A DNA stretch of 61,755 bases, filler included, from Nemertoderma westbladi (Eukaryota > Animalia > Xenacoelomorpha): assembly GCA_032718475.1 (NCBI GenBank). It is 3 parts of 3 records of this genome, joined end to end, with 100 filler letters (N's around TTAATTAATTAA, not from the genome) between each part and the next. Parts side by side here need not be neighbours in the genome. Positions count along the whole stretch, not along the records: positions 1 to 22,310 come from JAUCBJ010003152.1; 2 more parts are not named here. One strand, given 5' to 3'. The notes under the pieces were generated by a model that worked only from the letters and a program-made list of their open reading frames with translations, ran no database searches and had not been told where the DNA came from. Made by a program: the position numbers and the translations under genes. The number at the start of each line of letters is the position of its first letter. Position 1 is the first letter of the stretch. Positions 5,977-31,564 of the stretch are shown piece after piece.

Positions 5977-7071
5977 TGTAAAAGCTTTTGCGGACATAAC
6001 AAGTCATTTTTACGAAATGCGCAGAATACTCTAAAATAGCCCTAAAATTGTTCAACTACGCCTCGGACAGAAATTAGAACCGAGATGACGAAATCTGTCA
6101 GCTGATTCTTTATGTATGTGGAGATTTCTTTGTTCAAGCTTATTCAGCCAATCAGAGCAATCTTCCTAGTTATATCAGTAGAGACCTACCTGAGAAAACT
6201 AGCACATGCGCATTTAGTTATCGTTTTTCTGAGAATTAGATTCCTCTCAGAATTCTGTACTAAGTACGGTCGTTTCAGACTTTGGCCCAAGAACATCTGA
6301 TGGCCTTAGTTATAAGAACGTAAATCTATTAACGAACAAACCACATCGGCATATCTGGTCATACACTTGTCATACTGGAACACTGGACTTCATGAACACA
6401 TACTGACTGTTCACCACACTGTTTTAATTCTGTTTTATATTGTGTTAATTGCTGTTTATATTAATGGATGTTATATTTGAAGAATACCGATAAATAATCG
6501 TAAACCCCCTCAATCTTCTTGATTACTGAGGTAAGCGGAGGAAGAGTTTACCGGTAGCAACTGTGACTCAAATTATAGTGGTTTTTGTGTGAATTAAATG
6601 TTATTTCATAATCCCTACGTGTGTCAGTTGCAATCGTCCTTATATATGATCAAAATCAGTGACTGTCGGCAAATTAGTGTGAATTAGTGTAAATTAGTGT
6701 GAAGTAGTGTGAAGTCGTGTGAAGTCGTGTGAAGGTTAATAAAGCATCTCCTAAAGAATGCGCTATTTACGAAACTCTGTGGCCATCTAGTTGTGATTAG
6801 TGTAAGTCATCACTCTGTTTTTATACTTAAAGCGCCACGTCCCAAAGGAAATGTTAATATTTCCCCGAAAGTAAATATAGTTGTCAGAGATTATATAGTA
6901 GCGATCAATCGAATAATACAAGTAGCCTACACCGCAATAACTTCCTCTGGAACCCGAATCCAGTCTCCCGCACCGTGGGTTATACGCCGCGCACGGACTG
7001 GCTTCGGCAGATGTAAATTCAGTACACCAGGTAATTGGTACGGGCAAAGTCGATTCATAATCAAAAGGACA
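5977..7071 (+). repeat. Candidate 5' LTR of element C
   Basis: TGTAAAAG start shared with A; CCAAT box near 6148; AATAAA near 6738; ends ...GGACA before a conserved TGG motif. The 3' boundary is inferred. Confidence 0.5.
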
Positions 7072-8871
7072 TTTAAAATTGGCAGGTTAAACTGCTAAAG
7101 GGCTAAAAGCACGAACATTAATAGATTTTGATTCTTTATTGCTCAGTAGACAATAAACCCAAAACGTACCGGTAGGATGGTAGACTGTAGGCCTAGTAAC
7201 CCGAACCGGTACTTACCCAGTATTATTTGATTGTGATAATTATATACCGGTAGGTCTTAATATTTAATCAGGGACTGCAGCCCTGGTTTTTATTAGGATT
7301 TTACTTATTTCTGTCAGTTTTATTTATCTGTAAGTGTAATATTGAGCAGAAGGCGTGTAAGCCTGCTCAGATTGAATAAATAATTTGTAGGCCGGATTGT
7401 TGTCTAACTGTTGTTAGGTCTGAGGCGATTGCAGTGTATGTAGAGTGTCTGTCCGATAAAGTGCTAGTTAGGAAGGTGGAGGCATCCAGTGCTGTAAGGT
7501 AAATCCCTCACGAAAGAATAAGTTGTACTACATAGTTGGAACACTTACTAACTAACCATTTCGGAGATTACATATACTGTAGCTTATTTAGGCTTGACAG
7601 AAGTCTTCCAGCATTTTGTCTGTCTGCCAGCCTGTGTTTTATTTGTATAGTCTGTACGATACGGGTAGCGTAATATTTATTATTCAGAGTTTATGCAAGT
7701 ATTTGCAACCTTCATCTCCCCAAGTTTATTCCTTACAGTAATTATGCTTATTATGCAGACCGTTATAGTTAAATTAACCCCGGTACTACTTCAGGACTGC
7801 TTGGCGTAGGACAGACTGGTGATTTTGTGCTCCGTTCACTCCAGCAGATACCGTGGTTCTTTTGGCTGTTCACGTATATTTAACTGCTGGTTATATGTTG
7901 TATAAGTACTTGTACCTAATTTAGGGTTTAGAGTACAGTGCTTTCCTGAAAGTTATTTAGTGTGTAGGCAGTATATTTGTATTGTAACGTGGTTAATAGG
8001 TCCGTTAGCTCAGGTTGGCTTCAATAATTCACCTCTAGGTTTAGGACACTCCAGGTACATATCGTAGTGCTTATAGTTTAAGACTATAAGCTGTCAGACG
8101 GTGGTATTTCCTTATCTGGACAACGCAACATACTTAATACTACTTTATTGGTTTCAAATACTGTAATTTCCTGTCAGTTTGTAAGAACCAGAAATTCTAA
8201 CGCCTTGTTAGTCTGGTTCGTAAATTTATTGTTAAATTACCCTAAAAAATTGTACGTGTAACTTGTTTATTGTTTATTTAGAGATTGTGTAATCTCAACC
8301 CGATACGTAAGTAATTTGTAGTGATAAGTAACTTAGTTAAGTAGAATTATCAGTATTAGTGTCTAACAAGTAGCACTCCACTGAGAGCGTTCAGCCTCTG
8401 TGTAGTGACTTCTTATACAGAAACAATAACATTTATTTCAAATATTGTCAAAACCCATTACAGGTATATATATATACATTTACAAATTAGTAGGCCTGTT
8501 ATATATCAATTAGGTCTCAATATCAGTTGAACTACTGCTTAAAATCAGTAATAAAGTAAAGGGAAGTAATCCCTAAAATTCAGAAAATGAGTTATTATTA
8601 AATAATTGACATTACCGGTAGTTACGGTAAGCTTATTATATATATAATAAATTAGGCTAAACTTATATACCGGTATTCTGTGACTGATCCTAGTCTGTAA
8701 TAATACTGATATATATACTATAGGTGTATACCGGTATTCTAATATTAGATATATACCACGTTATATTGAATAGCGATATCAGTAACTACTAGACGGACAG
8801 TTGATACTGATTTCCCCTAGACTTTCTTTAACTGTCATTATAGTAGTAGGTATTCAACTGTTAAATAAATT

Positions 8872-11800
8872 ATGTCTGACACAAAACAAACACTGTCAGA
8901 TAGTCTCTTAGAAAGAACGATCTGTGACCCAGATCAAAGTATGGAACATCCTAGACCGAAGTATAAGTCCCCTCCTACTGTAAGAAAGGTTATCCCTACA
9001 GTAGTGGTATCGGACCCTAGGCTAGTAAAGCACCATAGGTCTATTATAGGCACTAGGGCTCAAGTTAAGCGAGACCAAGCTATGGCTGCAAAACAACAAC
9101 AGTTCCCAAACCAAGAACTTATTTCTCAACTGCGTAGTAACTCTAGTTCCGACACCGAAGAGTTAACGCCCGAGATCGGAACAAGGATGGAAGAAGCGGT
9201 TTATCCAGACCCACTTCTAATTCTTCCTGGGGCAGTACTCAGTAGAGTACTTATAGCTGTAGCAGAACATCAAGCGGATTGGATGAGAAATAAGAGATCG
9301 ACCAGGACAGTTATACAGGATACCCGATGGAAGAACTAAGGTCTATTGTAGAGACTCAATGGAACTTCCCCGGACCCGGACTCCCGTTTAACTTATCGGA
9401 AGCTGCCTGGGAAGATTTATACCAAATGGGGGTAGTGAGAGACACTAGAGATCCCGCTGTATGGAAGAGGTCAGCAGCAGGAAATGTCCAGGGATTCTTC
9501 AATTCCTTGGAAAAAATAGAAATCCAATTATTTCAACAACCTCAGGGACCTCAAGAGCAGGGAGAGCTGCTTTACCAAGTGAGAGAGCGTATCTTGAGGA
9601 TCAGGTTAATCCTTTCAGCCTTTGAAGAGGCCTCGAAGAGAAGTCAAGACACGTCGTTACAGGTGGCTGTAAAGACTTGGTTCCAACGAGTGAATGTTAA
9701 AGTCCAGGGAACAACACAATGGAGGGTTCAGTTAACTGAACGCATAACCCACGGAGAATCAACCGATGCAACTTTTTCTCATGTGGAAGGCGAGGCGGTA
9801 TCTGAAAAACCTAAGAAGAAGGATGCTATTGACATCTATCTGTCGGATTATCAACGATTTATATGTGACAAAGAGCTAAGGACACGGCTAGCTGGACTTC
9901 ACCCCAATAGTGAAGGAGCCAAATTTATTTTGGACTCTTTAGATGCGGAGATATTAGCCACGGAGCAGGCTAAATTTGATGAAAGTATTCTCATCGCAAT
10001 GGACAAAGAAGAACAAATAAAGAAAAAACAGATAGAAGACCGAAAGGTAGCAGCGGCAGTGGCAGCGGCAGAGGCTGAAAGAAAAGAGGCAGCGGCAGCG
10101 GCAGCAGCAGAAGCTGAAAGAAAAGCGGCAGCGGCAGAAGCTGAAAGAAAAGCGGCAGCAGCAGCGGCAGTGGCAGAAGCAGAACGGAAGGCATCTGAAG
10201 CGACAGTACAGCTAGAGTTGGAGAACCTTCAGGCGAAACAAGATTACTTAAATAAACAAAGAGCAGCTACTCAGATGCAACTACTGAGTCGATCTACTCC
10301 CAGAAGGCAGGGATTTACCTCCTCGGATGAAGCTGATACAACTGATCCCGAGGGTAAAGGTAGTAAATCTCATTCAAACGGATGTAGAAGAGCGCCCCAC
10401 AGGCATAAGTTACCTAACTTACCCCCTGCGGTGAGAAGGGAGTGTAATGAAGAGGGAGTAATAGAGAGCCACAGCCCAAATTATAAGAGTAGAAAGACTC
10501 CATACTATAGTAGATGAGCCAGAAATAATTAGGCCTGTTAGCGAAGCCACTCCCTTAATAGAGACCCGTTTACTTCCAGAACCTAACTCTAAATTCCCTT
10601 TACACAGTACCAAACTACCTGTGCCCAGTAGACAACTGCCAGAATCTCAGACAGCCATGGACACCGAGCAAGAAATAATAAATAGATTGTCTCCCATCGT
10701 CCCGATGTGCCATCCAGCTACGACGTTGGCAACTCCCGCCTCCGCGGTTGAGTGGATGGACGAGGGACGACGGGGGATGGAGCAGTTGCTCGGACAACTC
10801 GAAGACAATAAGATCAAGTCTTCCAAGCAAGTCCTAGAATTGGAAGGGACTGTTCAGCTGTTAAAGGGAACAGTAAGAGAGAGTAGGTTAGAGCTGCAAG
10901 AAGTACAGCAAAATATCGCTCTCGAGCGCGATAAATTAGTAAGTCTACAAATGGGTATACCACCACCCTCTGTAACAATGTGTCAGCCTGTTAGGTCTGA
11001 AGTATTTCATGCGCAAGGTGTAGAAACTCCAATAGTAAACCCTATTAAGGGTATTAATAAGCATGTTGATAATGATATCCCATACTGATCTGATAATAAT
11101 CCGAGAAATTTATATACCGATAATTCGATATTAAATAATACGATGGCTCAAGAAAGTTTTACACATCAGATGGCTAGAACGGAAGCCCGTCAAGCGGTAA
11201 AGGTGGGAGAGGTCGTCAAGTTCAATGGAGATGAGATGAAATGGTTACCTTTTACTGAATATTACAAAGATAACATACAGAACTCCGTACTATCCAGCGG
11301 AGAAAAACTACGATTCCTCATTGAGTGCTTGGAAGGACCTCCCAAGTTAATGGCGTTAAAGTTTATTGGACATCCAGACAGATTGAGACAAGTTTGGGAT
11401 ACGCTAAACATCAGGTATGGTAATAGGACTAACATAGCTAGATATCTGTATGTGAAATTAGTAGCGCCCCGAAAGTTTCTTAGCAGCGGGATTATAGAGT
11501 TTTCCGATGAGATTTAGGAGATCTGTAAACAGCTAGACTGGTTGGGTAAGTCTCAGGAATACCAGAGTTCTATGGTTGTAGGAGCCGTAGCATCAACTTT
11601 GCCAAAGGGTGGAGTAGGTACTCGCTGGGACAAAAAGGTTCTCTATCTGATGGACCAACAACATAGAGACCCTACAATGGCTGATCTCATGTCGTTCTTA
11701 AACGGAGAGGTAAGATTACAGCTCCTAAAACAGTCTAGAGAGAAGACACCGGAAAGTAAGGTAATTGAAAAACCCGTTACTAGGAGAAAGGTAACACCAG

Positions 11801-12390
11801 TGTGTTATACAGATGATGACGAAAGCCAAACGTCACATGACGAGAACAGTGGCAAGGACACCGAGAGATCTTACTATGTAAACAAAGTTAGGAAAGACGT
11901 AAGTAAATCTAAAGCTCGAACCAGTGACAAGAGAGAACAGGTAACAACTCCCCCTACGTCTCCCAAAAGAATTCATGGAAGGAAGCCCGAAGAAAGAGCT
12001 AGCGTACAAAATACGACGCAGGTTAAGGTAAGTAACATCAAACCTAAGTGTGTATTGTGCGACGGGCCGCATCGCTTGAGTGGGTGTGAAGAATTCTTAA
12101 AGAAATCATTGAAGGATAGACGTGATGTCATGTGGGATAAACGGTTGTGCTATAACTGCCTCAGGCGAGGACATCAACGAAGAACCTGTTACTCAGACGC
12201 GAGGTGTGCTAAGTGCAGCGCGAAACATCATATTTTGCTTCACACCGAATTTGATAGTACCCGGACGAGTCACGTAAGTGAGCCCGAACTACATGTCCAA
12301 TTCAGTGATGTGAACGACACTGACCACAGTTCGGAGATGGAAGGATTCTACACCGATGAATTTTCGACGAAAATGAATCCTGTTATATGA
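8872..12390 (+). pseudogene. gag: gag of element C, split into ORFs 8872-9339, 9327-10517, 10621-11088, 11143-11517 and 11542-12390
   Basis: BEL gag core KFNGDEMKWLPF...EKLRFL...WDTLNIRYGN and BEL Zn knuckles CVLCDGPHRLSGC, CYNCLRRGHQRRTC, CAKCSAKHHILLH. The last three ORFs are in frame, separated by single stops. Contains an (A)nEAERK coiled-coil repeat at ~10045-10200. Confidence 0.9.
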
Positions 12391-14503
12391 TCAACACAAC
12401 CGTATATCGAGCACTTACATATGAGACCGAGACGGAAGGAGAGGAAACCCGATTGTCTATTCCGGACAGGCAGCTCTCATGGAAAGCACCAACATCATCT
12501 GTCGGTATCCGAGAGTTTCCCGTGGTGCAACTGAGGGTGCATGGAATAGGGAAGAGCTTAATAGTGAACGCCCTCCTTGACTCCGGCAGTACAGGCACCT
12601 TTATAGACAAAGACCTAGCCGAAGATATCTTTGCTGGTCAACCAAAGTTCCGAACCGAACTGAACCTTTCTGGAATTATGCAGGTTTGAAAATCCACGGT
12701 AGCCACCGATTACTATGTGGGTTCGTTGTCCACTCCCCAGGATGAACTAGGAGAAAATAGTGTAAGGTCAGTTAAGATGGTGGTGATAAAGAACTTTGCT
12801 ACTAGCCAAGTGGAGCTCTACAACTGGGATGAAGATCATTTTACCCAGCAATACAACATACCTAGATTCAGTACCAATTATCCAGGGGTACAGATATTAC
12901 TCGGCCAAAATGCGCACGAGGCGCTTGAGACAATAGAAAAACGGCCTGCTCGACCGTGACCACTCCAGACTTATGCGGGAAGAACAAGAGTAGGTTGTTA
13001 CTTCACTGGACCTTCCCACAGGACTTTACAAGAAAGACCATCAGGTAAATGAATGTGAGGAAGATATAAGTGAAGAAGAAATACCAGCTGAGGAAACCCC
13101 ATACTCCTCAGATAACGACGATATACATAACTTGTATGACGAGGAAAATACCCTTGAACTCCTCACTGAGAATCAAACTTGGTTAAACCAAGTTAACTTG
13201 TGTAACCTTATCAGTCAAAATAGCGAACAATTTACTTATGATGATGAATTAAATGAAGCGGTAGAGCGGTACAATGTGGGATGACTCGTGGGATGATCCA
13301 CTCAAGGGAGAACTGCTAAAGAAGTGGATGAAATTGGAAGATTCTTTACCATCTATCGAGAACTTTAAGATTTCCCGCTCATATTTCGGCCACGTTCTCC
13401 CCACATATTCCTATCAACACCATGTTTTTGGAGACGCCAGCGATATTTGAATAGGTATAGTAGCCTACCTGAGGTTTGAAACTCTCGATGGAATTAAGGT
13501 TTCATTAGTCGCCTCTAAGGCCCTAATAAACAACAAACTGCGAGTTCCCAAAGCGGAGTTAAAGGCGGCTCTATACGCTACAGCCATCGGCCGGAATGTA
13601 ACGGAACAGATCGACTATCCACTAGAGAAAACTGTCTATTGGACTGATGCTTTACTCGTTCTGGAGTATATAACTAATGAAGTCTGTCAGTTCAGCGTCT
13701 TTGTTACCAACAGAGTAGCCATTATACTCAGTCGCTCTAATATAGATCAATGGAGACATTGCCCTGGGACGATTAATCCAGCTGACATCGCTTCCAGAGG
13801 AGCAACTCCTCAAGGATTGATAGATACTCCAGACTGGTTAGGTGGACCCGACTTCCTGGGTAAAGAAGAGGAGGAATGGCCCCCTCATCTCACCATGGCG
13901 GAGATCAGACAAGCCAAGGGAGCGGAGAAAGTCAAACCGAAATCCCGGACGAGTAAATCAAAGCTGTTTAAGCCAGCGATAGATCTGTCTGTGCTACACA
14001 CCGCCGGTGACGCCACTGTGGATCTAAACTCACCCATGGATGTTATCCGAACTATAAATAAATCCGTTATAGAAATCAGAGAAAGAGACTGGAAATCTGG
14101 GACACCAGACGTCTCGCAAGGACTCTCTCCTCTCATACAAAGAGCGATAGATCATTACAGCTCCTGGAATCGGCTTTGCAAGGCCATTGTGTATCTGAAA
14201 AGATGTTTCCATCATCACTATTCCAGGACAAAGATCGCTAATGATACCACTCCAGTAGTAGCTGAAAAGGTCCATGCTACTAAAGACCTTCCCACTTATA
14301 GAGTGCCTGATAGGTTTCTGACGGAGAAGGTCAGTTACCAAGAACATGATGATACCAACAAGCAGATACTGAGACTCCTGCAATGTTACGAGGATTCCGA
14401 TAAGTATTTCCTGTTGTTAAGAAATCCACAGATGCGCTCAAGGGATCGTTTCTCTAGCACAATGATAGATGGGTTAATACGTGTCGGAGGGAAATTAACC
14501 AAT
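12387..14503 (+). pseudogene. pol: pol remnant of element C: aspartic protease, RNase H region, lead-in to integrase; RT missing
   Basis: ALLDSGSTGTFI (protease). At ~13285 the sequence jumps to WDDPL..W, HVFGDAS, VPKAELKAA, YWTDA, NRV, WRHCPGTINPADIASRG, WLGGPDFL, GLIRVGG. No YxDD motif seen. Confidence 0.88.
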
Positions 14504-15076
14504 TGTGACGGGATCAGATAGAGGATCCCGGTTTATCCGGTGGTTTGGTTTATTTACGCGTCCCGCCGTGTGAAAAGAGTTTGTTAGAGTTCCTGTTGTT
14601 AATCGCTCAGTATGTATATAATATAGAATGGTATAAAGTATAAGCACAGTTATAGCGAATGCAGTTAGTAATTGCGGTATACAGACAACAGGAATGAATA
14701 AACGGCTGAATGGTAATAAAAGTTACCGTCCTACCCTAACTGAACTGGCTAGCTAATGAGTGAATGAATAACACGGTTACTGGTAATATATTGCACCGGT
14801 TGGCCGCATTACACTACTCAGCCGATACCTTCCCCCCATTGGCTAATAACTCACTTGTCACCCTCCCATCTCCCTGGGAGTACTTCCCCCCCGCTGCTGT
14901 GTCTCTCTCCCTCCCGGAGGTGTAACCTCTGACCCCCGCTGTGTGTGTTCCCTTGGGGCCTATTGTCCCCGCTTATTGGGGTGACACGAGGTTGATTGGT
15001 AACCAACCTCGTGCTCCCAATATTGCTTAAAACCAACTCTGTGTGGGCCTGGCTAGCGGAATTGAATATGCTAACA
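14504..15076 (-). repeat. 3' LTR of BEL/Pao element D (573 bp)
   Basis: Minus strand reads TGTTAG...TCACA. Preceded by PPT GGGGGGAG (15077-15084); AATAAA ~45 nt before its end; interrupts the pol of C mid-frame. Confidence 0.8.
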
Positions 15077-15771
15077 CTCCCCCCATGCTATCTTCCCGGT
15101 GAGAAGATAGCATCCACCGCTAGTGCGCTACAATTCCGCTGGATCTCGACCTAGTATCGAGTGTGGGGTGGAACTATTTTCCTCGGAGCCGGCTTTCCAG
15201 ACCGCCCCCTATGGGTATGATATCGCTACCCTGTTTACCTGGCGTCCCGTGTCGGGCCGATCGTGCGCTCCTCTCACACGACTTTTGTTTCCCCAAAACT
15301 TTCACCACTAACTCTACTCTGTTCTCACCCTGACTCTCCTCTACTTCTCCTCACTTCCGCTCTAACTTTCGGACTTCCCTGTCCCTCACTCAGCCTCTTA
15401 TTCCTCCCCCCCCCCCCCCCACACTTGAATTGCACCCGCACTCTCTCCGCACTACAACTCAACCCCTATCTCTCCCACTCACTCCCGACGAGTTTCACTC
15501 CCCTCCTGTGCCGTCGCACTCAAGAAGTGTGATGTCGTCCAGTGTCTCGTCCATGATAGTATTATAGTCTATCGGTCCCCAGTCCCAGTAGCTAATTGAG
15601 AAAAAGGTTGTACGACTATAGTACTTACTTTGATTATATTTTGCTAAACTAATAATGATTACTACGTACGTACCTACTAATTGCACTTTTCAATTATTTA
15701 AATTACTTGAATTTGTACTTAGGAGTTCGCACGTCTCGTGTGGTGCCTTAGAGGCATGTTACACCGAAGTC

Positions 15772-16827
15772 TTAGTTCGTTCCACCAGCCTTTGGGAACC
15801 ACATCAAGTCTTTCCCTCTGTCGTCCTCCTCCCTTGGTCGTTTCCTGGTCACTGCCGCTCCTCTGGTCTTGTCTGCTTTCTGGCTTCGGACTCTCGCCGC
15901 CACCTCCTTACTGATCCCGGTTGTCGACTCCTTGGGTGCTGGTGTTATTAGCTCCCGGTATCGCTTTGCGGGTGGCCCCTCCGAGTGGCCCTGCTGTCTC
16001 CCCCTGGTGGCATCCCATAGGATCATTTTCATTGCCCGTGGCACATGCTCCGCCAAGAAATCCCTGATCTCTCCTCTGTTCTGTGGCGTCCACCTATCCA
16101 AATACCTCTGCGTATTTATCACCCCGGCATATGACGCCGCCGTCGCCACTTCCTGGTAGGTAAACGGAAGCCTCCATTTGATAATCTCCATGTGGGCCTC
16201 CTGATTAATGTTAAAGAAGCCCCACCGGAACTCCTGGGCCTTCATACGTTGCCGAGTCATCGCCCCGACGTCGGCCCACTCCTCGAAGACCCTAAACTTC
16301 TCTTCGTCGTCCATCCAGTCGCACTGGCGTCCGTAATGTCCCCGAAAGTTACACTTCGAACATCGGTTATGCAACCGTGGACACGCCCCCATCCTGTGGC
16401 TCGACTCGCTGCAGTAGAGACAACTAGTCCCTTTCTGGAACCGGTACAAGCAGCTCCTTTCCTGATGGGTCTGTCTCCCACAGTAGTCACAGCCGAGCAC
16501 CAATGTCTCCCGCCCCACGTCGTCTTTCGTCCCAAGCGATCTCCGCGGTCTGTGGAGTCGCTGGTAAGCGAACTTCCGGACGTTAGCGTCCCTGTCTACA
16601 TCGATCTCCTCGCCCCTCCCGGGCATCATCTCCCCGAATACTACCCGTGGTGCCGTCCCCGGTTGCTCGCCCAACCTGATAGTGCTCCCCGCGAAATCCA
16701 TCGCCGGCTCCTCATGCACCCAGGCCCGCTTGCCGGGTCTATCCCAGAAGGCCCTCGCCCCACTGGCCGTCACCACCCTCCCGCCAACCCAGTCCGTGTC
16801 CGAGTGGCCGATCCTCTCTCCGAACAT
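15772..16827 (-). CDS. Accessory ORF, C-terminal part: three CCHC zinc knuckles plus uncharacterised region
   Basis: CDYCGRQTHQERSC, CLYCSESSHRMGAC and CSKCNFRGHYGRQC are each CX2CX4HX4C. 351 open codons, same strand as pol. Confidence 0.75.
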   Translation of the reverse strand: MFGERIGHSDTDWVGGRVVTASGARAFWDRPGKRAWVHEEPAMDFAGSTIRLGEQPGTAPRVVFGEMMPGRGEEIDVDRDANVRKFAYQRLHRPRRSLGTKDDVGRETLVLGCDYCGRQTHQERSCLYRFQKGTSCLYCSESSHRMGACPRLHNRCSKCNFRGHYGRQCDWMDDEEKFRVFEEWADVGAMTRQRMKAQEFRWGFFNINQEAHMEIIKWRLPFTYQEVATAASYAGVINTQRYLDRWTPQNRGEIRDFLAEHVPRAMKMILWDATRGRQQGHSEGPPAKRYRELITPAPKESTTGISKEVAARVRSQKADKTRGAAVTRKRPREEDDRGKDLMWFPKAGGTN

Positions 16828-17329
16828 GGCATCTCTCCGAACTCGTCGTCGTCCTCGTCCTCTTCTGGCAGTGGCTCCAACCCTGGTATCCCGGTGGACC
16901 CACTATGTCACTTCCCGCCTTGGCTCTCGCCCGTAGCTTTCCATCCTTCTAGCTCCCCTAACCTCCTTAGCGGCTGGTCGCCCTCGGCGCCCGCTGGTAT
17001 GGGCATCGTCTGCAATCCCGACGTCGACTGTTTCGGTGATCCCACCGTCCATCCTAGTTCTCGCCCTAGAGACTCCCCCGAACTCCCTGATGAGGTCCAA
17101 CGAAGTTCGTCTAAGGCCGCCTGTTCCTCGAAGCCGTAGCTCTGTGCTCTAGCTTCCTCCTCACTTTCCTCTGCTTCTCTCCTCTCCTGTCTAGCGACTT
17201 CTTCCAATCACTTCGCCTCTCGTCTATCCGTCTCTAGCTGCTCCCACCTCTGATACGGCGTATCTACCTCCCCGTCTTCCAGATGTCGGCTGTTGTAGTA
17301 CACTGACTCGCCCTTCAGCCCCGGGTGGT

Positions 17330-18370
17330 CTACCAGACCCTCGAAAGCCGTCTTAAAGGGACGGCTCTTCTGTAGCTTAGGGGTGATCCCAATAATAGGA
17401 ATGCCGCTGGTTCCCTCTCGATAACCACGGTCATGAATAGGTTAAGCAAACCCATCATTATCCAGTCCTCCTGTAGGATATATCGCTTCTGATATACCTT
17501 TATCACTCCTCTCCGGAATTGATACACCTCTTGTCTCCCTGGCCTCGCTCCCCACTTCAGCGAGTTCGCCAAGTCCGCTCCGTACTCCCCTCTGAACTTA
17601 CCCCAGTCCATCGGTTTGTGACACACGAGCCCCATTAACTGGCCCATTGCCACCGCCCCGCAATGTCCTGTGTTCTCCACTAGTCCCAACCCGTCTGGTG
17701 CTGTCATAGCCATATAGACCGTCTGCATATCCACAAGGTTGGGGGTGTCCGGACCGATGATTCTCTCTGCATCGTCGCGAATCGCCGATCCCACTTTCGT
17801 CGTCGACTTCTCTCTCACTAGGGTCTGCACCGCCTTCGGCAACCGGTTCAATTTCGGCCCGTCCTTCTTTCCATACATTCCTAGATCGAATAGGAATATA
17901 TCCCCATTTGGCACGGCCACATGTAGGAGTATGGTTCTGGCCGACCCCGCCGATCCTCTCCTCGAACCCTCCTCGTCTTCCACGGTTCCTTTGTCGTCTA
18001 GGATCATGTATCCTCCCCTGCCGATGGACTCTACGAACCTCTTCCAATCTTTCCTCGGTGGCTCTCTCGCGTACTTCGGAATCCCGAACTTCGCCTCATC
18101 TCCTTTCACCACGTAGTGGAAATGCTCGAAGATCGCGTTGTCCAGCGACGGCGTCCCATAGGTCCCGACCAGCCGCTGTTCGTGCACCTCCCTGAAATGG
18201 TCCTGTAGCGCTCGCGCTGCGTGACCCCTCTCTAACCGCTCGTAGTATCCCCTCGTCTTCTCTTCCGGATGCCTCTTGGTGAAATCCACTAGTATTTCTT
18301 TTCTTCCTGACTCCGCCTTTCTCTTCCTGATCAGTTTCCGCGCCATTCCGAACTCTGCCCGATCGCTCAC
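17330..18370 (-). CDS. Accessory ORF, N-terminal part: DnaQ/DEDDy-like 3'-5' exonuclease domain (RNase D/WRN-exo/EXD type)
   Basis: Motifs in the expected order: MILDDKG (ExoI-like), ILLHVAVPNGDIFLFDL, LPKAVQTLVREKSTTKVGSAIRDD (ExoII-like), NLVDMQ, QKRYILQED (ExoIII-like). Confidence 0.7.
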   Translation of the reverse strand: MSDRAEFGMARKLIRKRKAESGRKEILVDFTKRHPEEKTRGYYERLERGHAARALQDHFREVHEQRLVGTYGTPSLDNAIFEHFHYVVKGDEAKFGIPKYAREPPRKDWKRFVESIGRGGYMILDDKGTVEDEEGSRRGSAGSARTILLHVAVPNGDIFLFDLGMYGKKDGPKLNRLPKAVQTLVREKSTTKVGSAIRDDAERIIGPDTPNLVDMQTVYMAMTAPDGLGLVENTGHCGAVAMGQLMGLVCHKPMDWGKFRGEYGADLANSLKWGARPGRQEVYQFRRGVIKVYQKRYILQEDWIMMGLLNLFMTVVIEREPAAFLLLGSPLSYRRAVPLRRLSRVW

Positions 18371-18779
18371 CCGTTGGGTGGTGCCTTGGCAAGGCGCAAT
18401 AGGATGAGTGATAGGTTAGGATGGTTTATTTCAGTTCAATGGCCTGTCTCTCTCTGAATTACTAAGTTATATAGCCTATTTTACACTACCTAATTTCTGA
18501 AGCTACCAAATTGTACTTTAAATTACAATTTTGTCAGTTACTTTAATTATGTTCCAGAATTTTCTTGCTACTGTTACCATAATTTGTTAATTTTCTTAGC
18601 CCTATTCTATTTTTAATATTTTAATTTAATTCAATCCTACTACTGTGCTACTACTTATTATTGCCAATGGATTATTCTATTCCATAATCCACATTCTGGC
18701 CTACTCTGTGGGCTTGTGCAGTACAACAGTATGCGTCGCGTGGCCTACACGATTTATCCTGCTGTACTCATATGCCCCC

Positions 18780-19385
18780 CTCTCGCTACTAACTACTAAC
18801 TAATGTCTATATTATACATACCCTTCTACCTCTTACTCTTACTAGCCGGTACTACGTACCCTCTTACTAACCTCTAACTCTCTCTAACTAACTAACGGTA
18901 CTACGTACCCTCTTACTACTAATTTCCCACTATCTAACTAGCGGTACTACATACTCTCTCACTACTAATTTCCCACTATCTAACTAGCGGTACTACTTAC
19001 TCTCTCACTACTAATTGCCCACTATCTAACTAGTGGTACTACATACTCTCTTACTAATGGTACTACGTACCCTCTTACTACTAATTTCCCACTATCTAAC
19101 TAGCGGTACTACTTGCTACTTGCTAACGGTACTACGTACCCTCTTACTACTAATTTCCCACTATCTAACTAGCGGTACTACTTGCTACTTACTAATGGTA
19201 CTACATACCCTCTTACTACTAATTTCCCACTATCTGACTAGTGGTACTACTTGCTACTTACTAACGGTAATACATACCCTCTTACTACTAACTCTTACTA
19301 ACTAACTAGCGGTACTACGTACCTTCTAACTACTAACTCCTACTATCTGCCTAACTCTTACTAACTTCCATCTGCCTACTTACTC
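18780..19385. repeat. Composite tandem repeat between pol and the accessory ORF of D
   Basis: Repeated modules CTACTAATTTCCCACTATCTAACTAGCGGTACTAC and GGTACTACGTACCCTCTTA, with periods of about 50 and 78 bp. Confidence 0.85.
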
Positions 19386-19506
19386 TTCCTTTATTTATTA
19401 TTTTTTTTATTTTTTATTTTATTTGTGGGAAGGGCGTCTCGCCCTCATTCCCACCCCCCTCAGTCCAAAACTTGGACGACTAAACTCCACTAAAATCCAC
19501 CCTAAC

Positions 19507-22310
19507 TCAAGGTGCCCCCTCTAGCAGACAGCATTTCCCTACAGCCCTCCTGTAGGTCTTCCTGTCTTTCGCACCTATCTTGCCTCCTATTCGCACTTCT
19601 ACCGATCGGACTCTTCTGTCCTCATCGGAGTAAGTGCCCACAACTCTCGCCAACCGCCATTGGTTGTTAATGATGGTATCGTCCGTGACGATAACCAGAT
19701 CACCCTCCTTTAACTCTCTATTTGTATTCCTCCACTTGCTTCTTCTATGTAGCGTGGGCAGATATTCCTCGACCCACCTCCTCCAGTACTCTGCGCTTAT
19801 CGCCTTAGCGACTTTCCAACTCTGTCGGGAGTGTATATTGTCTGGGTCTACACCCCGCATGTCGATGGTCACCGGCCTCTCCATTAGAAAGTGACTGGGC
19901 GTCAGCACATCTAATGACTCTGGGTCATCATTCTCTGGATATAGCTGTCTGCTATTAATGATACCCTCACACTTTGCTAGTACTGTCCTTAGTACGTCCT
20001 CTGTAACCATGTGGGTGTTCATCAACTTCGTCATCAGACGCTTCGAACTACCCACTAGTCTCTCGACGCATCCTAGGGTATGCGGAGCATACGGCGTCCT
20101 CCTCGACCATTTCACTTGTCGACTTCTCATGGCTGCCCTGACTTCCTCCCCTTCCAGGATATCCAAGGCCTCTGCCATCTCGTTCTCTGCCCCCACAAAG
20201 TTGGTCCCGCTGTCAGAATACATTACTGCGATCGTCCCACCTTTGCGGTCTCTAAACCTTTCTAGAGCATTAATGAATGCTGATGCGGTTGCATCTTGGG
20301 CGAGTTCTATTCCTACCGCCCGCGTGTTGTTACATACGAAGATGATACCGTAGCGTTTCTCCGTGTGCCGCATCACCTTAATCTTTATCGGCCCGAACAT
20401 ATCCACACCGCAATGCGTAAATGGCGGGTCGTGCTGTCTCACCCTACTGGCCGGTAGTGGCGCCATCTCCTGTATGGCTCACTCCTTCTTCGCTCGTCGG
20501 CAGGTCTGGCACTGCCCCACTACCGCCTTTACCTTCTTCCTCAGCTGTTTGACCCAAAAGGTCCTCCGTATCTCCGTGAGGGTTCGGTTGGTGCCCCCGT
20601 GCAATATAGACTTGTGGGAGTCCCATATAATCTGGTGGACTATCGGCGATCCAGTAGGTATGATGATGGGTTTTGGCGGTATTACAATACTGTTGTTGTT
20701 CAATACCCTCGAGTTCATTACTAGAATCCCATCATCATTAAGTTGTGGTGACAGCGTGATCAGCTTGCTGTCCCGTTGGAGATGCTGTTGTTTACCGACG
20801 CGTTCCACCTCGTCGCCGTAGTTCTTTCTCTGCTCATAGCGGATGACTGCTTTGGCCACTTCCTCCAGATCGATGGTTGTTCTAACTTTTACGTCTTTGT
20901 CGACTCCCTTGAGGAAATCCCCGAAGGCTCTCCAGTACGCCACTAACTTCTTGGTCTTGTACCAACTGGAGCTGTAGCTGAGGAGTTTATCCGTCGGGTT
21001 ATCGCACAGTTCTCCCGGTTTTGGTTGCACGTCCCTTATCTCCCTCACCATTTGGCTGTATATCTTTTCTCCCTCTGAATCTCCCTCTTCTTCCTCTAAC
21101 GCTACTTCTCCTGAGCCCGGGTCCACCTTTCTCATCGGTGGCCAGGCTTCCTTATCGCTCAGAAACTGTGGCCCGTGTTGCCACAATACTTCCTTTTTTA
21201 AGAAAGTGTGGCGTGCCACGCCCCTCGATAACAAGTCCGCTGGGTTCTCGTCCGTTGGGCAGTAGTGCCACCTTTCCAGTTCTGTGGTCGCCCTTATTTC
21301 ATCCACCCTATTTGCGACGAATATAGGGTATCTCGTCCTCTCGTTATGTAGCCAACCGAGCACTACCATGGAATCCGTCCAGTAGTGTGTTTCCACTATG
21401 TTGGGGATAGCGTCCATTAAGTAGGCTGTGGCCCTAACTCCTAACCTCGCTGCTGTTAACTCGAGTTTCGGAACCGATGCCGAATCTGGTGGCGTCGACT
21501 TCGCCTTGCTAAATGCGATGTCTGGGCTTGTGAGCCCCCTCTCGCTGTACTAAGTAGAGTGCCGCTCCGTATGCCTCTAATGACGCATCGGAGAACATAT
21601 GTAAATCCAGATTCGTCATGTTCCCGTCCGGGAAATATACACGTGACATGCTGCATGTTCCCATTTGCTCTAAACTCTCTGTCCACTTGCTCCATTGCTT
21701 ACTAATCTCTTCCGGGACCTCTGTGTCCCACTCGTCCTTTAATTTGTATACTCTCTTGAGTATCTGTTTCCCCGTGACTAGTAATGGGGATGCTAGGCCT
21801 AGGGGATTGTATATCCTCGCTATATACGACACATAGCCCCTCTTTGTGTGGATACCTGCGCCCTCCTGACTCAACTGGTATTTTAACTCGTCTGTCTCTC
21901 GGTTCCACACGATCCCTAGTGCCTTCTGCTGGGACTCCAATCTCTTGTTCGCCATGTCCTGTCCCTTGGCTGTCGTGGGATTATCCATGGTCGACTCTGG
22001 CCTCCTGTCCTCTATGGCTTTCATGAACTCTTGCGAGCTGGATTGGAACTTGGTTAGGTTGAACCCGGATCCTATTAGGATGTCGCGAACCTCGCGCCCC
22101 GTGTCCAGTAGTTCCTTAACCGTATTTCCAGACTCCATCCCGTCGTCTACATAGAAGCCGCGTCGAATCATATCGACGGCTCTAGCACTGTATTTATCTT
22201 CTTTTCCCTTTACTGTGTCTCTTACGGCCATAGTCATCGTGAACGAAGACGACTTGGCTCCCATATTCTGTACTATCATCTTGTACATTGGTATTGTCGA
22301 CGGTTCCTCG
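19507..22310 (-). pseudogene. pol: pol of element D: RT C-terminal half, RNase H and integrase, with one frameshift (~21520) and one in-frame TGA (20479-20481)
   Basis: FYVDD, GFNLTKF, YNPLGL, HMFSDAS, VPKLEL, YWTDS, NPADLLSRG, H..ILH...CQTC, GVDMFGP, SDSGTNF, ERLV, LTPSHFL, W..EYLPTL..RSKW. Confidence 0.95.
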
Positions 22311-22410
22311 NNNNNNNNNNNNNNNNNNNNNNNNNNNNNNNNNNNNNNNNNNNNTTAATTAATTAANNNNNNNNNNNNNNNNNNNNNNNNNNNNNNNNNN
22401 NNNNNNNNNN
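22311..22410. other. Assembly gap with artificial six-frame-stop linker
   Basis: N44 TTAATTAATTAA N44. Confidence 0.97.
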
Positions 22411-25400
22411 CTGATCTATACGGGACACAAACACCCTATATGGGACACAAACAACCTATTTGGGACAAATTTAAATTAAAGTTATGATAGTGGATTCTAT
22501 TTTCTTTTGAGTATTTCCATGAGATTTATAAACTATGTAAAATCATTTTGAGGAAGTCACACGCTATTTGGCACAAAAAAACACCCTATATGGGACGAAA
22601 ACAACCTATTTGGGACAAATTGAAATTAAAGCTATGGTAGTGAATTCTATATTCTTTTGAGTATTCCATTACATTTCGAAACTATTTGAAATCATTATAA
22701 GCACTTCACACCGTATACGGGACACAAACACCCTATACGGGACACAAACACCCTATATGGGACACAAACAACCTATTTGGGACAAATTTAAATTAAAGCT
22801 ATGATAGTGGATTATATTTTCTTTTGAGTATTTCCATTATATTTATAAACTATGTAAAATCATTTTGAGGAAGTCACACGCTATTTGGCACATAAACACC
22901 CTATATGGGATGAAAACAACCTATTTGGGACAAATTGAAATTAAAGCTATGGTTGTGAATTTTATATTCTTTTGAGTATTCCATTACATTTAGAAACTAT
23001 TTAAAATCATTATAAGCAATTCACACCCTATACGGGAGTCAAACACCCTATATGGGACAAAAACAACCTATTTGGGACAAATTGAAATTAAAGCTATGGT
23101 AGTGAATTCTATATTCTTTTGAGTATTCCATGAGATTTAGAAACTATTTAAAATCATTATAAGCAATTCACACCCTATATGGGTCTCAAACACCCTATAT
23201 GGGACAAAAACAACCTATTTGGGACAAATTGAAATTAAAGCTATGGTAGTGAATTCTATATTCTTTTGAGTATTCCATGAGATTTAGAAACTATTTAAAA
23301 TCATTTTGAGAAAGTCACACGCTATTTGGGACACAAACACCCTATATGGGACAAAAACAACCTATTTGGGACAAATTGAAATTAAAGCTATGGTAGTGAA
23401 TTCTATAGTCTTTTGAGTATTCCATTACATTTCGAAACTATTTGAAATGATTATAAGCACTTCATACCCTATATGGGACACAAACACCCTATACGGGACA
23501 CAAACACCCTATATGGGACACAAACAACCTATTTGGGACAAATTTAAATTAAAGTTATGATAATGGATTCTATTTTCTTTTGAGTATTTCCATGAGATTT
23601 ATAAACTATGTAAAATCATTTTGAGGAAGTCACACGCTATTTGGCAAGAAAAACTCCCTATATGGGACGAAAACAACCTATTTGGGACAAATTGAAATTA
23701 AAGCTATGGTAGTGAATTCTATATTCTTTTGAGTATTCCATTACATTTCGAAACTATTTGAAATCATTATAAGCACTTCACACCCTATACGGGACACAAA
23801 CACCCTATACGGGACACAAACACCCTATATGGGACACAAACAACCTATTTGGGACAAATTTAAATTAAAGTTATGATAGTGGATTCTATTTTCTTTTGAG
23901 TATTTCCATGAGATTTATAAACTATGTAAAATCATTTTGAGGAAGTCACACGCTATTTGGCACATAAACACCCTATATGGGACGAAAACAACCTATTTGG
24001 GACAAATTGAAATTAAAGCTATGGTTGTGAATTTTATATTCTTTTGATTATTCCATTACATTTAGAAACTATTTAAAATCATTATAAGCAATTCACACCC
24101 TATATGGGACTCAAACACCCTATATGGGACAAAAACAACCTATTTGGGACAAATTGAAATTAAAGCTATGGTAGTGAATTCTATATTCTTTTGAGTATTC
24201 CATGAGATTTAGAAACTATATTTAAAATCATTTTGAGAAAGTCACACGCTATTTGGGACACAAACACCCTATATGGAACACAAACACCCTATATGGGACA
24301 AAAACAACCTATTTGGGACAAATTGAAATTAAAGCTATGCTAGTGAATTCTATATTCTTTTGAGTATTCCATTACATTTCGAAACTATTTAAAATCAGTA
24401 TAAGCAATTCACACCCTATATGGGACTCAAACACCCTATATGGGACAAAAACAACCTATTTGGGACAAATTGAAATTAAAGCAATGATAGTGAATTATAT
24501 TTTATTTTGAGTATTCCATTATATTTATAAACTATGTAAAATCATTTTGAGAAAGTCACACGCTATTTGGCACACATACACCCTATATGGGACACAAACA
24601 CCCTATATGGGACATAAACAACCTAGTTGGGACAAATTTAAATTAAAGCTATGATAGTGAATTCTATAGTCTTTTGAGTATTCCATTACATTTCGAAACT
24701 ATTTGAAATGATTATAAGCACTTCATACCCTATATGGGACACAAACACCCTATACGGGACACAAACACCCTATATGGGACACAAACAACCTATTTGGGAC
24801 AAATTTAAATTAAAGTTATGATAGTGGATTCTATTTTCTTTTGAATATTCCATTATATTTATAAACTATGTAAAATCATTTTGAGAAAGTCATACGCTAT
24901 TTGGCACACTAACACCCTATATGGGACAAAAACAACCTATTTGGGACAAATTTAAATTAAAGCTATGATAGTGAATTCTATTTTCTTTTGAGTATTCCAT
25001 TATATTTATAAACTATGTAAAATCATTTTGAGAAAGTGACACGCAATTTGGGATACAAACACCCTATATAGGACACAAACACCCTATATGGGACATAAAC
25101 AACCTATTTGGGACAGATTTAAATTAAAGCTATGATAGTGAATTCTATTTTCTTTTGAGTATTTCCATTATATTTATAAACTATGTAAAATCATTTTGAG
25201 AATGTTACATGCTATTTGGGACAAAAACTCCATGTAAGGGACATAAACACCCTATATGGGACATACACAACCTATTTGGGACAAATTGGAATTAAAGCTA
25301 TGATTATGAAGTGGAGTTTTCGGTATTCCTTTACATTTATAAACTATTTTAAATAATTTTGATAAAGCTACAGGCTATTTTGGACAAAATCAACCTATAC

Positions 25401-25440
25401 GTGACACTAACAACCTATTTGAGTCAAATTTTAGACTTAT
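22411..25440. repeat. Satellite DNA with ~140-160-bp monomers, each built of 3-4 copies of a ~20-bp subrepeat plus an AT-rich segment
   Basis: Subrepeat ACACCCTATATGGGACACAA and spacer AAATTAAAGCTATG.TAGTGAATTCTAT..TCTTTTGAGTATTCCAT recur about 20 times; the array decays towards 25440. Confidence 0.95.
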
Positions 25441-28664: not shown

Positions 28665-30405
28665 AAATAATAATAATAATAATAATATATATTTATATAG
28701 CGCCTTTCTGAACATATTTCAAGGCGGTTAAAAAACTAATTGAAACCAACTAAAAAACTTTAAAAAACTGCGTTCTAAAAAACTGCGAGCTAAAAAAACA
28801 CCAGGCTACCTACGTACAGTGAATTAATTACTAAGTAAAAAGTTTGAACAATATTAAATAAAAATCAGCAATATTCCTCTTTGTACATACAGGTGAGTTT
28901 TGAGTCGCGATTTAAACAGAGTCAACGTCGTGGCATCTCTAACTTCTTGCGGGAGGGAGTTCCAGATCGTTGGTGCCGCAATTGAGAACGCCCGTCTCCC
29001 GTAATTATGCAAGTGAAACTGCGGTACAAATAGAAGTCCCTTTTCAGCAGACCGTAATTGTCGTGGAGGTACATAGGGAGTTATTAAATGGGTCAAGTAG
29101 TCAGGAGCAGCACCATGTAAACACTTGAATGTCAACAAAGCTATTTTAAATTTGATCCGTAAATTTACAGGTAACCAATGCAAACGTTTAAGGACTGGAG
29201 TGATGTGCTCTCGTTTCTTAACGCCCTCTAGCAGTCGCGCTGCGGAATTCTGTACAAATTGTCATTTTTGATTGACTTCGAGGGTAATCCATAATATAAT
29301 GAGTTGTTGCTATCGAGTTTGTTTGTGACAAAGGCGTGAATTAAGATTTCAAGGTCATGTCTGCTGAGGTACCGTTTAATTTTAGCCAAACTTCGAAGAT
29401 GAAGAAATGCATCTCGGACTGTCATACTTATTTGATTGCTGTATGTCAGATTTGAATCCATGATGAAACCTATATTACGTGCCTTGTCGCTGCAGCTGAT
29501 CAGGTCATCCCCTATTTGTATGTTAGGGGGCGTTAGTGGTTTACCGCAACAGGACTGCAGAAGGATAATCTCCGTTTTATCTGAGTTCATTTTCAATAAA
29601 TTATCTTCCATCCACTTCTTTACGTCGGCCACGCAACGTTCAGTCACCTCAACAGCGACGGACGAATTAATAGGTTTAAAACTAATGTATAGCTGGATGT
29701 GTATCGTCCGCGTACAAATGATACGTGAGGCCGTGTTTGCGAATAACATTTGAAAGCGAACGAGTGTATATCGAAAATAATATAGGTCCAAGTACCGATC
29801 CTTGTGGCAGCCCGTACAGCAAATCCAACCAGTTCGAATATGTTGCATTAATGCGAACCTGTTGTGACCTATTCGACAAGTACGACCTTAACCATTCCAG
29901 GGCGTTTCCCTCAACCCCGATTTCTCGTTCTAGAATGTCCAACAGTTTAACGTGGCCGACCGTGTCGAAGGCAGCACTAAGGTCTAATAAGACGAGAAGT
30001 ACTCCCGATCCCGAATCGATTTTGCGTAATATGTCGTCGCTTACCTTAAGCAACGCGGTCTCCGTTCCGTGAAAGGGTCTGTACGCGCTCTGTAAAGGTT
30101 CATACAATTTATTTATGTTCATATGAGTCATCAGCTGGTTTGCAATCACCCGTTCTGTTAACTTCGCTAAATATATCAGATTAGACACCGGCCTAAAGTT
30201 CCTAAGTATCTCAGGGTTTAATCGTGCTTTCTTTATGACTGGTGTTAACACAGCTTCCTTGAATAGAGTCGGCACAGTAGCAGTTGTAATTGATAAATTA
30301 ATAATTAACATAATCACCGGTTGCAACAATTTCATTGAAAGTTTTACTAATTGCGTGGGAATCGGATCCATGGTACTAGATTTAGATTTTGAGTTCTTTA
30401 TTAGC
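28665..30405 (-). mobile_element. 5'-truncated CR1/L2-group LINE (RT), frameshifted
   Basis: DPIPT, NFRPVSNL, QSAYR..HGTETAL, LLDLSAAFDTV, GLPQGSVLGP, YADDT, HWLPV..RIKFK; 3' end GGCGCTATATAAAT followed by an (ATT)n tail. Confidence 0.95.
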
Positions 30406-30477
30406 TTTCTGCCTCATCCATTGTTATTTTATTAAAGTGTTCCAATTTGGGAATATTGTTTCCTTTACCGTTGGTTG

Positions 30478-31497: not shown

Positions 31498-31564
31498 ATA
31501 GGCCTAATGTATATTGTAATGTACATTAAAATGATAGACACTAACCCGATAATAGATATGACCG

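Follow-up and report, generated by a model that had tools for sequence, protein, structure and literature searches.

The window, i.e., the whole stretch of 61,755 nucleotides of Nemertoderma westbladi DNA that was analysed, raises the question of which gene an LTR retrotransposon carries in its env slot, between the end of pol and the 3′ LTR, and what this gene would do for the element. The original prediction placed there a gene for a 3′–5′ exonuclease domain plus three CCHC zinc knuckles. The preferred reading, held with a probability of about 45%, is that this third gene (ORF3) of a BEL/Pao element, kept by selection, encodes a likely DEDDy exonuclease followed by knuckles, which together would form a knuckle-anchored RNA-trimming enzyme serving the element.

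The host element and the gene behind its pol

The features of the locus are as follows.

14504-15076, minus strand: 3′ LTR, 573 bp, TGT...ACA (boundary in other copies)
15077-15170, minus strand: hairpins and polypurine tract (PPT) ahead of the LTR (fold z = -3.42)
15772-18346, minus strand: accessory ORF3, ~855 codons, broken in the window copy (frames, codon model, contigs)
15775-16320, minus strand: C-terminal region of no known family, with basic clusters at its end (no Pfam match)
16321-16491, minus strand: three CX2CX4HX4C zinc knuckles (motif; zf-CCHC_4, E = 0.015)
16827-17357, minus strand: acidic low-complexity linker (composition)
17440-18010, minus strand: likely DEDDy/DnaQ-type 3′–5′ exonuclease domain (ESM Atlas, alignment, weak local HMM match)
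17998, 17797, 17773, 17482 and 17464, minus strand: putative motif residues of this domain, i.e., ExoI-like D, KVG, ExoII-like D, ExoIII-like Y and W, respectively (alignment)
18347-19427, minus strand: non-coding spacer from the integrase side to the ORF3 ATG (codon-model scores, repeats)
18385-18421, minus strand: candidate splice acceptor for a subgenomic RNA (predicted from sequence)
19428-19506, minus strand: hairpins and first PPT-like G run, ~19461-19454 (fold z = -2.96)
19507-22310, minus strand: 3′ part of BEL/Pao pol, i.e., end of RT, RNase H and integrase (Pfam domains)

The pol copy in the window, which is split into three pieces, matched the Pfam families Peptidase_A17 (E = 2.3e-28 and 1.9e-5), Integrase_H2C2 (E = 4.2e-13), rve and DUF5641 (E = 1.3e-23) in this order, which is that of a Pao-type RT/RNase H followed by integrase (RT-RH-IN). 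The integrase end predicted at 19507 is confirmed by a frame stop there, with DUF5641 and rve matched. On the 3′ side of ORF3 and on the same strand, a purine run and TGT...ACA delimit an LTR-like sequence at 15076-14504, as had been predicted, which carries a TATA-like motif at 14620 and AATAAA at 14554; a PPT followed by a TG...CA LTR of this length falls within the 0.2-1.2 kb BEL/Pao range. By its pol order and its PPT/LTR, the host element of ORF3 is a BEL/Pao (Belpaoviridae) LTR retrotransposon. The LTR sits inside a plus-strand pol that belongs to another BEL element, and the 14503/14504 boundary was confirmed by a loose end at 14503 that continues the latter element in other copies. A neighbouring element at 11518-12390 has BEL gag knuckles with mixed spacing. 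A second LTR copy was sought in the window and none was found; the upstream side of pol is cut by an assembly gap (N run, 22311-22410), and the 5′ half of the element is missing there, which is why only a single LTR can be seen.

ORF3 starts with an ATG at 18346 and ends with a stop at 15772-15774, on the strand of pol. The coding-like stretch that had been proposed from 18370 is borne out in its minus strand and its stop, but its start moves to this ATG. The window copy has four breaks, i.e., a frameshift at ~17358, stops at 17208-17210 and 16908-16910, and a frameshift at ~16826. The frame switches were located by a codon model trained on the element's own pol, in which the N-terminal piece scores +36.6 in its own frame versus -96 and -84 in the other two. 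The first frameshift, expected at ~17360, coincides with a contig indel row at ~17358, and the TGA at 17208-17210 was found where it had been described. In contrast, a second frameshift at ~17100 was rejected, since the codon model scores -1.2 and -2.8 there versus 10.6 for the best switch at 16828, and a contig indel row lies at 16826. The second stop had been given as TAG 16903-16905; the middle-frame stop is instead the TGA at 16908-16910, and the frame of the TAG is not yet coding there. Neither a signal peptide nor a transmembrane anchor was found in the three pieces of ORF3, the highest 19-residue Kyte-Doolittle mean being 1.36, and the N-terminus of the protein is basic. An env identity was rejected.

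The spacer ahead of ORF3 consists of an A-rich tract (19427-19384) followed by tandem arrays with units of 46 and 69 bp, whose copy number varies, and it scores from -105 to -179 in every frame of the same codon model. The candidate acceptor within it comprises a branch-like CTAAC at 18419, a pyrimidine tract and an AG ending at 18385, 39 nt 5′ of the ATG, and its tract is the most pyrimidine-rich 30-nt segment of the spacer (73% vs. 37% background). An Rfam search of 14400-19600 gave no match.

Copies, linkage and selection

Contigs of four runs, from three samples and three studies, were compared with the window copy as the reference. All 30 bins of 13500-22310 were covered in 4/4 runs, and contigs from the three studies cover the whole of ORF3, which is present in many copies. 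The listed ORF3 sites are shown by ~20-75 contigs per site in run X1, within the range of pol sites, a depth that is not equated with copy number. A one-off insertion was rejected. Three of the four breaks are places where other copies differ from the window: both frameshifts, with indel rows at 17358 and 16826, and the 16908-16910 stop, within which a substitution row lies.

An explanation that bears on linkage is that ORF3 and the LTR come from another element or a non-autonomous one, which follows this pol at the present locus alone or in just a few recombinants, with the BEL body ending at ~19455. The first PPT-like G run, a second one besides that ahead of the LTR, lies directly 3′ of the integrase stop and would suit such an end; no element-spanning contig was found among the contigs of the four runs, linkage consists of short local bridges, the A-rich tract (19384-19427), which the contig comparison skipped, is unbridged, and the 5′ LTR is lost at the gap. 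However, the integrase stop is bridged in other copies, with at least 31 bases on both sides in 5/6 listed crossing pieces, and diverged copies in two studies continue from integrase into the spacer. One contig (18040-18724) links the spacer and ORF3, another (15617-15952) crosses the ORF3 stop into the 3′ UTR, and the PPT/LTR junction row at 15078 comprises 34, 13, 17 and 3 contigs in the four runs. Moreover, the 18 loose ends listed (of 400) include no LTR start at 19454, and none of the 15 listed joints (of 137) skips ORF3 from pol to the LTR. A separate element behind pol is considered extremely improbable.

The selection counts rest on 26 listed rows, 15 of which come from one contig: among the 14 sites listed as segregating between copies, third codon positions account for 11 (p = 0.0007) and synonymous changes for 8 (p = 0.035), which gives a rough dN/dS of 0.3. 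Sites private to the window copy look neutral, with 4/12 listed synonymous in ORF3 and 1/9 in pol. In one diverged contig, ORF3 has 19 substitutions and 0 gaps, whereas the spacer has 26 substitutions and 23 gap letters, a gap contrast with Fisher p = 1e-4 by letters and 0.01 by listed events. Because the differences favour third positions and indels avoid ORF3, the gene was under selection, and the data support a multi-copy ORF3 family under purifying selection. These signs of purifying selection indicate that ORF3 did something for the element. With its many copies, this selection and no membrane segment, ORF3 agrees with the accessory, non-envelope gene that had been proposed for the env slot.

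The putative nuclease domain and the knuckles

In the ESM Atlas, the N-terminal domain has a recognition of 2657 (i.e., above 2300) and 170 shared features, clusters of PF01612 account for 24/30 matches with a best score of 0.93, and 10/10 best family matches agree. Aligned with 49 EXD2-like proteins, the domain places D, KVG, D, Y and W on invariant columns and in order, in a motif register taken from one global alignment. In the window copy, which is decayed, ExoI keeps its D, with K two codons on at the E position of D-x-E; the ExoII D and ExoIII Y are on invariant columns, and the ExoIII acid four codons from the Y is E rather than D, the next residue being D. At the ExoII motif, 5/2000 shuffles equalled the weak local HMM match, which ranked first of 80 window stretches. 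By the Atlas and the motif order, the N-terminal domain is likely a DEDDy-type 3′–5′ exonuclease.

The domain may instead lack a DnaQ fold and resemble one by chance, ORF3 then being an orphan protein with knuckles. Every alignment-based significance test was negative or marginal, and 4-10% of shuffled proteins reach 0.9 in the Atlas. For the domain, no Pfam family, no match in a PDB sequence search and no match in a phage search were found, hhalign was not significant (E = 0.049; score 19.9 vs. shuffles up to 28.9), nor was the global profile test (z = 1.1 and -0.1). For the N-terminal piece, phmmer gave no relative at E ≤ 0.001 (0 matches) among 1.84 billion representatives, a word-based search among longer proteins gave nothing, and bacterial RNase D-like profiles, 2/39 'short' rows of which are wrong-frame translations, were matched as well by 317/1000 and 46/1000 shuffles. 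However, this chance resemblance would have to account for the Atlas agreement and the five ordered motifs, and the original prediction had named the fold blind; a single-sequence model has a strand-helix order that fits DnaQ by eye, though at pLDDT 33 the model itself is too poor to use, and a Foldseek search with it was uninformative. An alignment-guided DEDDy-fold model (pLDDT 67) superposes on RNase D with Z 11.3 and rmsd 3.4 over 160 aligned residues, WRN and T. brucei RNase D (TbRND) tying with RNase D, but DEDDy proteins made up the alignment that guided it, so that it is not independent evidence; Foldseek with this model gave only E ≥ 1.3e-3. An orphan protein is considered very unlikely. 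The exonuclease-like domain that had been predicted is moderately supported, with the Atlas and motif order in its favour and nothing significant from Pfam, phmmer, hhalign or the global profile. The capture of the gene that had also been suggested stays a proposal, as the searches gave no relative for a tree.

The charged helical linker that had been described is indeed acidic, with 31 Glu among 177 residues and a net charge of -23, but it is helical-looking only in part. The three predicted CX2CX4HX4C knuckles start at 16491, 16422 and 16362. Their spacing differs from that of the mixed-spacing gag knuckles at 11518-12390, and a second gag was rejected, as it had been from the outset. The best PDB matches of the knuckle region are retroviral nucleocapsids (E = 0.005), and TbRND (7C42) matches weakly (E = 0.036). 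For the C-terminal piece, a word-based search among proteins of near lengths gave nothing and no related loci were found in viral and metagenome contigs; its best Atlas score is below 0.9, to CCHC and Air2-like clusters, which is a lead only.

The DEDDy-derived domain may be catalytically dead or weak; ORF3 may then bind the element's RNA as an adaptor, in the manner of EXD1 or Egalitarian, and serve to localise, export or shield it. Such an adaptor would fit the D-D-K of ExoI and the Glu for Asp of ExoIII in the window copy, the divergence of the domain beyond the reach of Pfam or phmmer, and a protein that combines three knuckles with a long acidic linker and has basic clusters at either end; in addition, both EXD1 and Maelstrom have been cited as DEDD derivatives without activity (PMC5408684). 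However, 3/4 acid positions are acidic and the tyrosine is intact, and the ExoI lysine may be private decay because the window copy has many private non-synonymous changes (8 of the 12 listed); the listed contig rows (40 of 82) do not include the ExoI codon. Rotifer ORF3s also vary the acid motif (DEED) yet retain the acids (PMC5408684). A pseudo-nuclease is considered somewhat unlikely.

The nuclease may also be active on the element's own nucleic acids, trimming 3′ ends of genomic RNA or primer or cleaning and proofreading cDNA ends in the particle, with the knuckles as nucleocapsid-like packaging aids. The nucleocapsid matches point in this direction, a role of this kind was proposed for rotifer ORF3s (PMC5408684) and for Dada DEDDy domains (PMC3706591, in part), and WRN/EXD2-type domains also cut DNA (PMC5408684). 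However, the knuckle likeness is generic, replication proceeds in most BEL/Pao elements with no gene of this kind (PMC8742986; PMC3118150, in part), and ORF3 is separate from Gag-Pol with a candidate acceptor of its own. This role appears distinctly improbable.

Proposed function and comparison with known systems

In the preferred reading of a knuckle-anchored RNA-trimming enzyme, ORF3 would be expressed from a spliced subgenomic RNA via the candidate acceptor at 18385, the knuckles would grip single-stranded RNA and pass its 3′ end to the nuclease site, by analogy with trypanosome RNase D, and working copies of the family would be catalytically active. The likeliest substrates may be short host silencing RNAs, i.e., unprotected or tailed piRNA and siRNA precursors, which would make the enzyme a counter-defence; this choice of substrate is the weakest step of the proposal. 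Mature piRNA 3′ ends are usually 2′-O-methylated and resist such enzymes. That a BEL/Pao lineage independently evolved a TbRND-like enzyme destroying or mis-trimming host small silencing RNAs, convergent with gypsy elements, is regarded as fairly unlikely; if true, it would be a transposon-encoded counter-defence nuclease in an animal.

With a likely DEDDy domain in ORF3, env-slot exonuclease cargo, known from gypsy-like elements of rotifers, would also occur in Belpaoviridae, a second family of retrotransposons. Should LTR elements recruit a 3′–5′ nuclease with RNA-gripping knuckles time and again, this would point to a need that recurs in their life cycle and is otherwise unmet, for which escape from small-RNA silencing is the obvious candidate. 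To our knowledge, animal transposon-encoded enzymes for such escape are poorly documented, and the high-copy ORF3 family offers natural variants for testing it.

The bdelloid rotifer LTR elements Juno1/2 and Vesta2/5 carry a DEDDy exonuclease ORF3 that is shared with Athena/Terminon (PMC5408684). Like the present element, they place between pol and the 3′ LTR a third gene that is not an envelope gene; it has a DEDDy-type domain (a likely one here) with an altered acid motif, no membrane segment and a putative function. They differ in belonging to a rotifer gypsy-like clade, whereas the host element here is BEL/Pao; in having only a Cys-His-Cys motif mentioned for two ORF3s, versus ~855 aa and three CX2CX4HX4C knuckles here; and in that the variation test there, on env and GDSL ORFs, gave neutrality, in contrast to the purifying selection here (PMC5408684). 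The likeness is one of slot and domain type, the rotifer ORFs being set beside ORF3 by description. The novelty that the original prediction had raised is limited to the BEL/Pao context and the triple knuckle, because a DEDDy ORF3 in the same slot had already been published (PMC5408684). No BEL/Pao exonuclease third gene was found in print, Repbase and GyDB BEL entries being outside this search.

Env-like third genes are known in BEL/Pao elements, e.g., in roo and in chuvirus-glycoprotein elements (PMC8742986; PMC3118150 and PMC13524379, in part), with which the present element shares the pol domain order, the PPT, an LTR length in the 0.2-1.2 kb range and the presence of a third gene 3′ of integrase. 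Their third gene is a fusogen, whereas the one here is predicted to be soluble and putatively nucleic-acid-binding. The word exonuclease is absent from the main text of PMC3118150 and PMC13524379, the part of these sources to which this statement applies. Dada DNA transposons are also mobile elements bearing a DEDDy exonuclease, but their domain lies inside a DDE transposase and keeps four acids, whereas it would form part of a separate retroelement gene here (PMC3706591, in part).

TbRND resembles ORF3 in its N-terminal DEDD 3′–5′ exonuclease, likely in ORF3, followed by tandem CCHC knuckles, but it is an enzyme of the cell, and its four knuckles come with a linker of 28 residues (PMC7797062, in part), whereas ORF3 has three knuckles ~300 residues past the putative nuclease, plus a C-terminal region. 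The resemblance may be taken as an analogy of how the two would work, with kinship limited to generic domains. In TbRND, the CCHC domain is required for RNA binding and efficient trimming (PMC7797062, in part).

Layout of the element and its surroundings

The BEL/Pao element and the other decayed elements of the window are arranged as follows.

Ending at 19507, minus strand: BEL/Pao pol, with domain matches to Peptidase_A17, Integrase_H2C2, rve and DUF5641
Between pol and ORF3, minus strand: non-coding spacer of 1.1 kb
ATG 18346 to stop 15772, minus strand: ORF3, the accessory gene behind pol, ~855 codons
Between ORF3 and LTR, minus strand: UTR of 0.7 kb, then a purine tract
15076-14504, minus strand: LTR of 573 bp, TGT...ACA
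28854-34179, 44463-45582, 54146-56814 and 60740-61392: other decayed elements, with gypsy-like RH/IN and non-LTR RT remnants

The pol gene is cut upstream by the assembly gap at 22311-22410, and the gag, PBS and 5′ LTR thus lie outside view. The outer end of the LTR was fixed independently: the LTR breaks into another BEL pol, and three sequencing runs contain a loose end at 14503 that carries on this interrupted pol. This second, decayed BEL element (8869-14503, plus strand), which retains Peptidase_A17 and a gag with mixed-spacing knuckles, is interrupted at 14503/14504 by the ORF3-bearing element, and no continuation of it was found within the window before the gap.

Two PPT-like purine runs were observed on the minus strand, one directly after the integrase stop (19400-19506) and one before the LTR (15077-15170), each preceded by a hairpin (fold z −2.96 and −3.42, respectively). 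The first run may be an ancestral PPT behind which the whole ORF3 module was added, or an internal plus-strand start. Directly behind a G+C hairpin, an A-rich tract (19384-19427, minus strand) carries three AATAAA motifs (19423, 19411 and 19399) and may serve pol RNA as an internal poly(A) site. At 18836-19378 the spacer contains 46- and 69-bp tandem arrays, whose unit number varies between copies.

Elsewhere, a BEL-type gag remnant (DUF1759, 4571-5092) is flanked by a pair of inverted arms of 221 nt, 2374-2594 and 6717-6937; other such arms occur at 509-1700 and 7383-8410. A 147/167-bp satellite array (22416-25430) adjoins the first gap, and an identical 12-base spacer between N runs occurs in both gaps (22311-22410 and 45583-45682), which looks like a scaffolding mark. 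Among the other decayed elements, the non-LTR remnants look L2-like and RTE-like by eye, and one of them is present twice, at 45018 and 60839.

ORF3 as a selected, multi-copy gene

Contigs were compared from four runs (three samples, three studies), one of which, X1, may itself be what the window was assembled from. Every one of the 30 bins of 13500-22310 was covered in the four runs, by short contigs that number in the thousands and vary in identity; their depth was not taken as copy number. The integrase stop is bridged into the spacer, with at least 31 bases on each side, by at least five contigs among those listed (two studies), and two of the five extend to 19428, 26 bases beyond the first PPT-like run. 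The tandem arrays are bridged by joints, spacer and ORF3 are linked in one contig, a further contig runs across the ORF3 stop, and the PPT/LTR junction was found in 34, 13, 17 and 3 contigs of the four runs. These links are local and leave gaps in the chain: none of the contigs runs the whole length of the element, and the comparison passed over the A-rich tract 19384-19427. Among the ends and joints listed (18 of the 400 loose ends, 15 of the 53 joints), four loose ends lie near the junction; by eye, three of them look like the window's own integrase-end or hairpin sequence, and the fourth is AT-rich and unrecognised.

Reading frames were scored with a three-periodic model trained on pol of the same element. 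The N-terminal piece scored +36.6 in frame vs. −96 and −84 in the other frames, and the middle frame scored best from 17358 to 16827, followed by the knuckle frame, with the optimal switch at 16828. In same-species contigs, indels fall at 17358 and 16826, and the stop 16908-16910 contains a substitution. Based on these frames and contig differences, the window copy is broken at ~17358, 17208-17210, 16908-16910 and ~16826. Other copies are unlike the window at three of the four; a difference at 17208-17210 is absent among the 40 of 1671 listed. The original prediction of one joined gene holds overall, with its frameshift at ~17100 and TAG at 16903-16905 corrected to ~16826 and 16908-16910.

For a rough estimate of selection, 26 listed substitutions in ORF3 (excluding the stop-codon row; tool-chosen, 15 from one contig) and 13 in pol were classified. 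Sites private to the window (at least 90% of X1 depth differing) look neutral, being synonymous at 4/12 in ORF3 and 1/9 in pol, as a dead window copy would show. Among ORF3 sites segregating between copies, 11/14 are third positions (p = 0.0007) and 8/14 are synonymous vs. 0.305 expected (p = 0.035), giving a rough dN/dS of 0.3; the corresponding pol sites are 4/4. In one diverged contig the coding part shows 19 substitutions without a gap, the spacer part 26 substitutions along with 23 gap letters; further listed coding pieces carry 84, 48, 37 and 35 substitutions, all gap-free. ORF3 is a genuine accessory gene of a BEL/Pao family, present in many copies and under selection.

A likely nuclease with three knuckles

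The ORF3 protein contains three CX2CX4HX4C knuckles (starts 16491, 16422 and 16362), in contrast to the mixed spacings of the neighbouring BEL gag, and no membrane segment was found in it. In the ESM Atlas, the N-terminal piece reached a recognition of 2657, with PF01612 clusters making up 24 of 30 hits (0.93, 170 features); the best of these carries PF01612 on 50% of members, and the hit that ranks first (0.94) is a cluster with no name. When the piece was aligned with 49 of 120 fetched bacterial EXD2-like proteins (14-22% identity), its D, KVG, D, Y and W matched, in order, invariant columns of the alignment, and the profile of all 120 gives an ExoII motif match of 4.3 bits, equalled by 5 of 2000 shuffles. 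A model built under guidance of an alignment (pLDDT 67) reaches Z 10-11 against RNase D, WRN, TbRND, EXD1 and Nibbler, a fit that indicates compatibility with a DEDDy fold only. Searches for the nuclease domain in Pfam, PDB sequences, hhalign, RNase D profiles and a global profile test gave nothing significant; no relative of the N-terminal piece was found among longer proteins (word search) or 1.84 billion representatives (phmmer), nor of the C-terminal piece among near-length proteins (word search) or viral/metagenome contigs. We place the probability of the DnaQ assignment at roughly 0.85-0.9, and ORF3 most likely encodes a DEDDy nuclease with three knuckles. Of the four acid positions, three are acidic in the window copy; the second ExoI position is Lys if read ungapped, which may be private decay of this copy.

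For the knuckle region (16321-16491), the nearest ESM Atlas clusters are Air2-like/DUF8363 CCHC proteins (0.84-0.89, a lead only). Air2 is a partner of the Rrp6/TRAMP pathway.

ORF3 would most likely be expressed env-like from a spliced RNA (predicted candidate acceptor 18385) as a soluble protein, with knuckles that would grip single-stranded RNA as its 3′ end is trimmed by the nuclease. T. brucei RNase D works in this way: loss of its CCHC domain almost eliminates binding and sharply reduces cutting (PMC7797062). The best guess for the substrate would be host small-RNA precursors, which would make the product a counter-silencing nuclease, a role of low probability; the rival readings are a dead adaptor and a product that processes the element's own RNA or cDNA.

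Comparison with known elements

Full-text literature searches listed no paper on an exonuclease gene in BEL/Pao elements; such an entry may exist in Repbase, GyDB, subscription journals or the supplementary files of PMC3118150 and PMC5408684, which lay outside these searches. The ICTV profile of Belpaoviridae lists gag, pol and env only (PMC8742986). DEDDy exonucleases are termed well-known accessory domains in PMC6338049, and occur in Terminons (PMC6431247) and in Dada transposons (PMC3706591). DEDDy ORF3s located after pol are known from the rotifer Juno and Vesta elements (PMC5408684).
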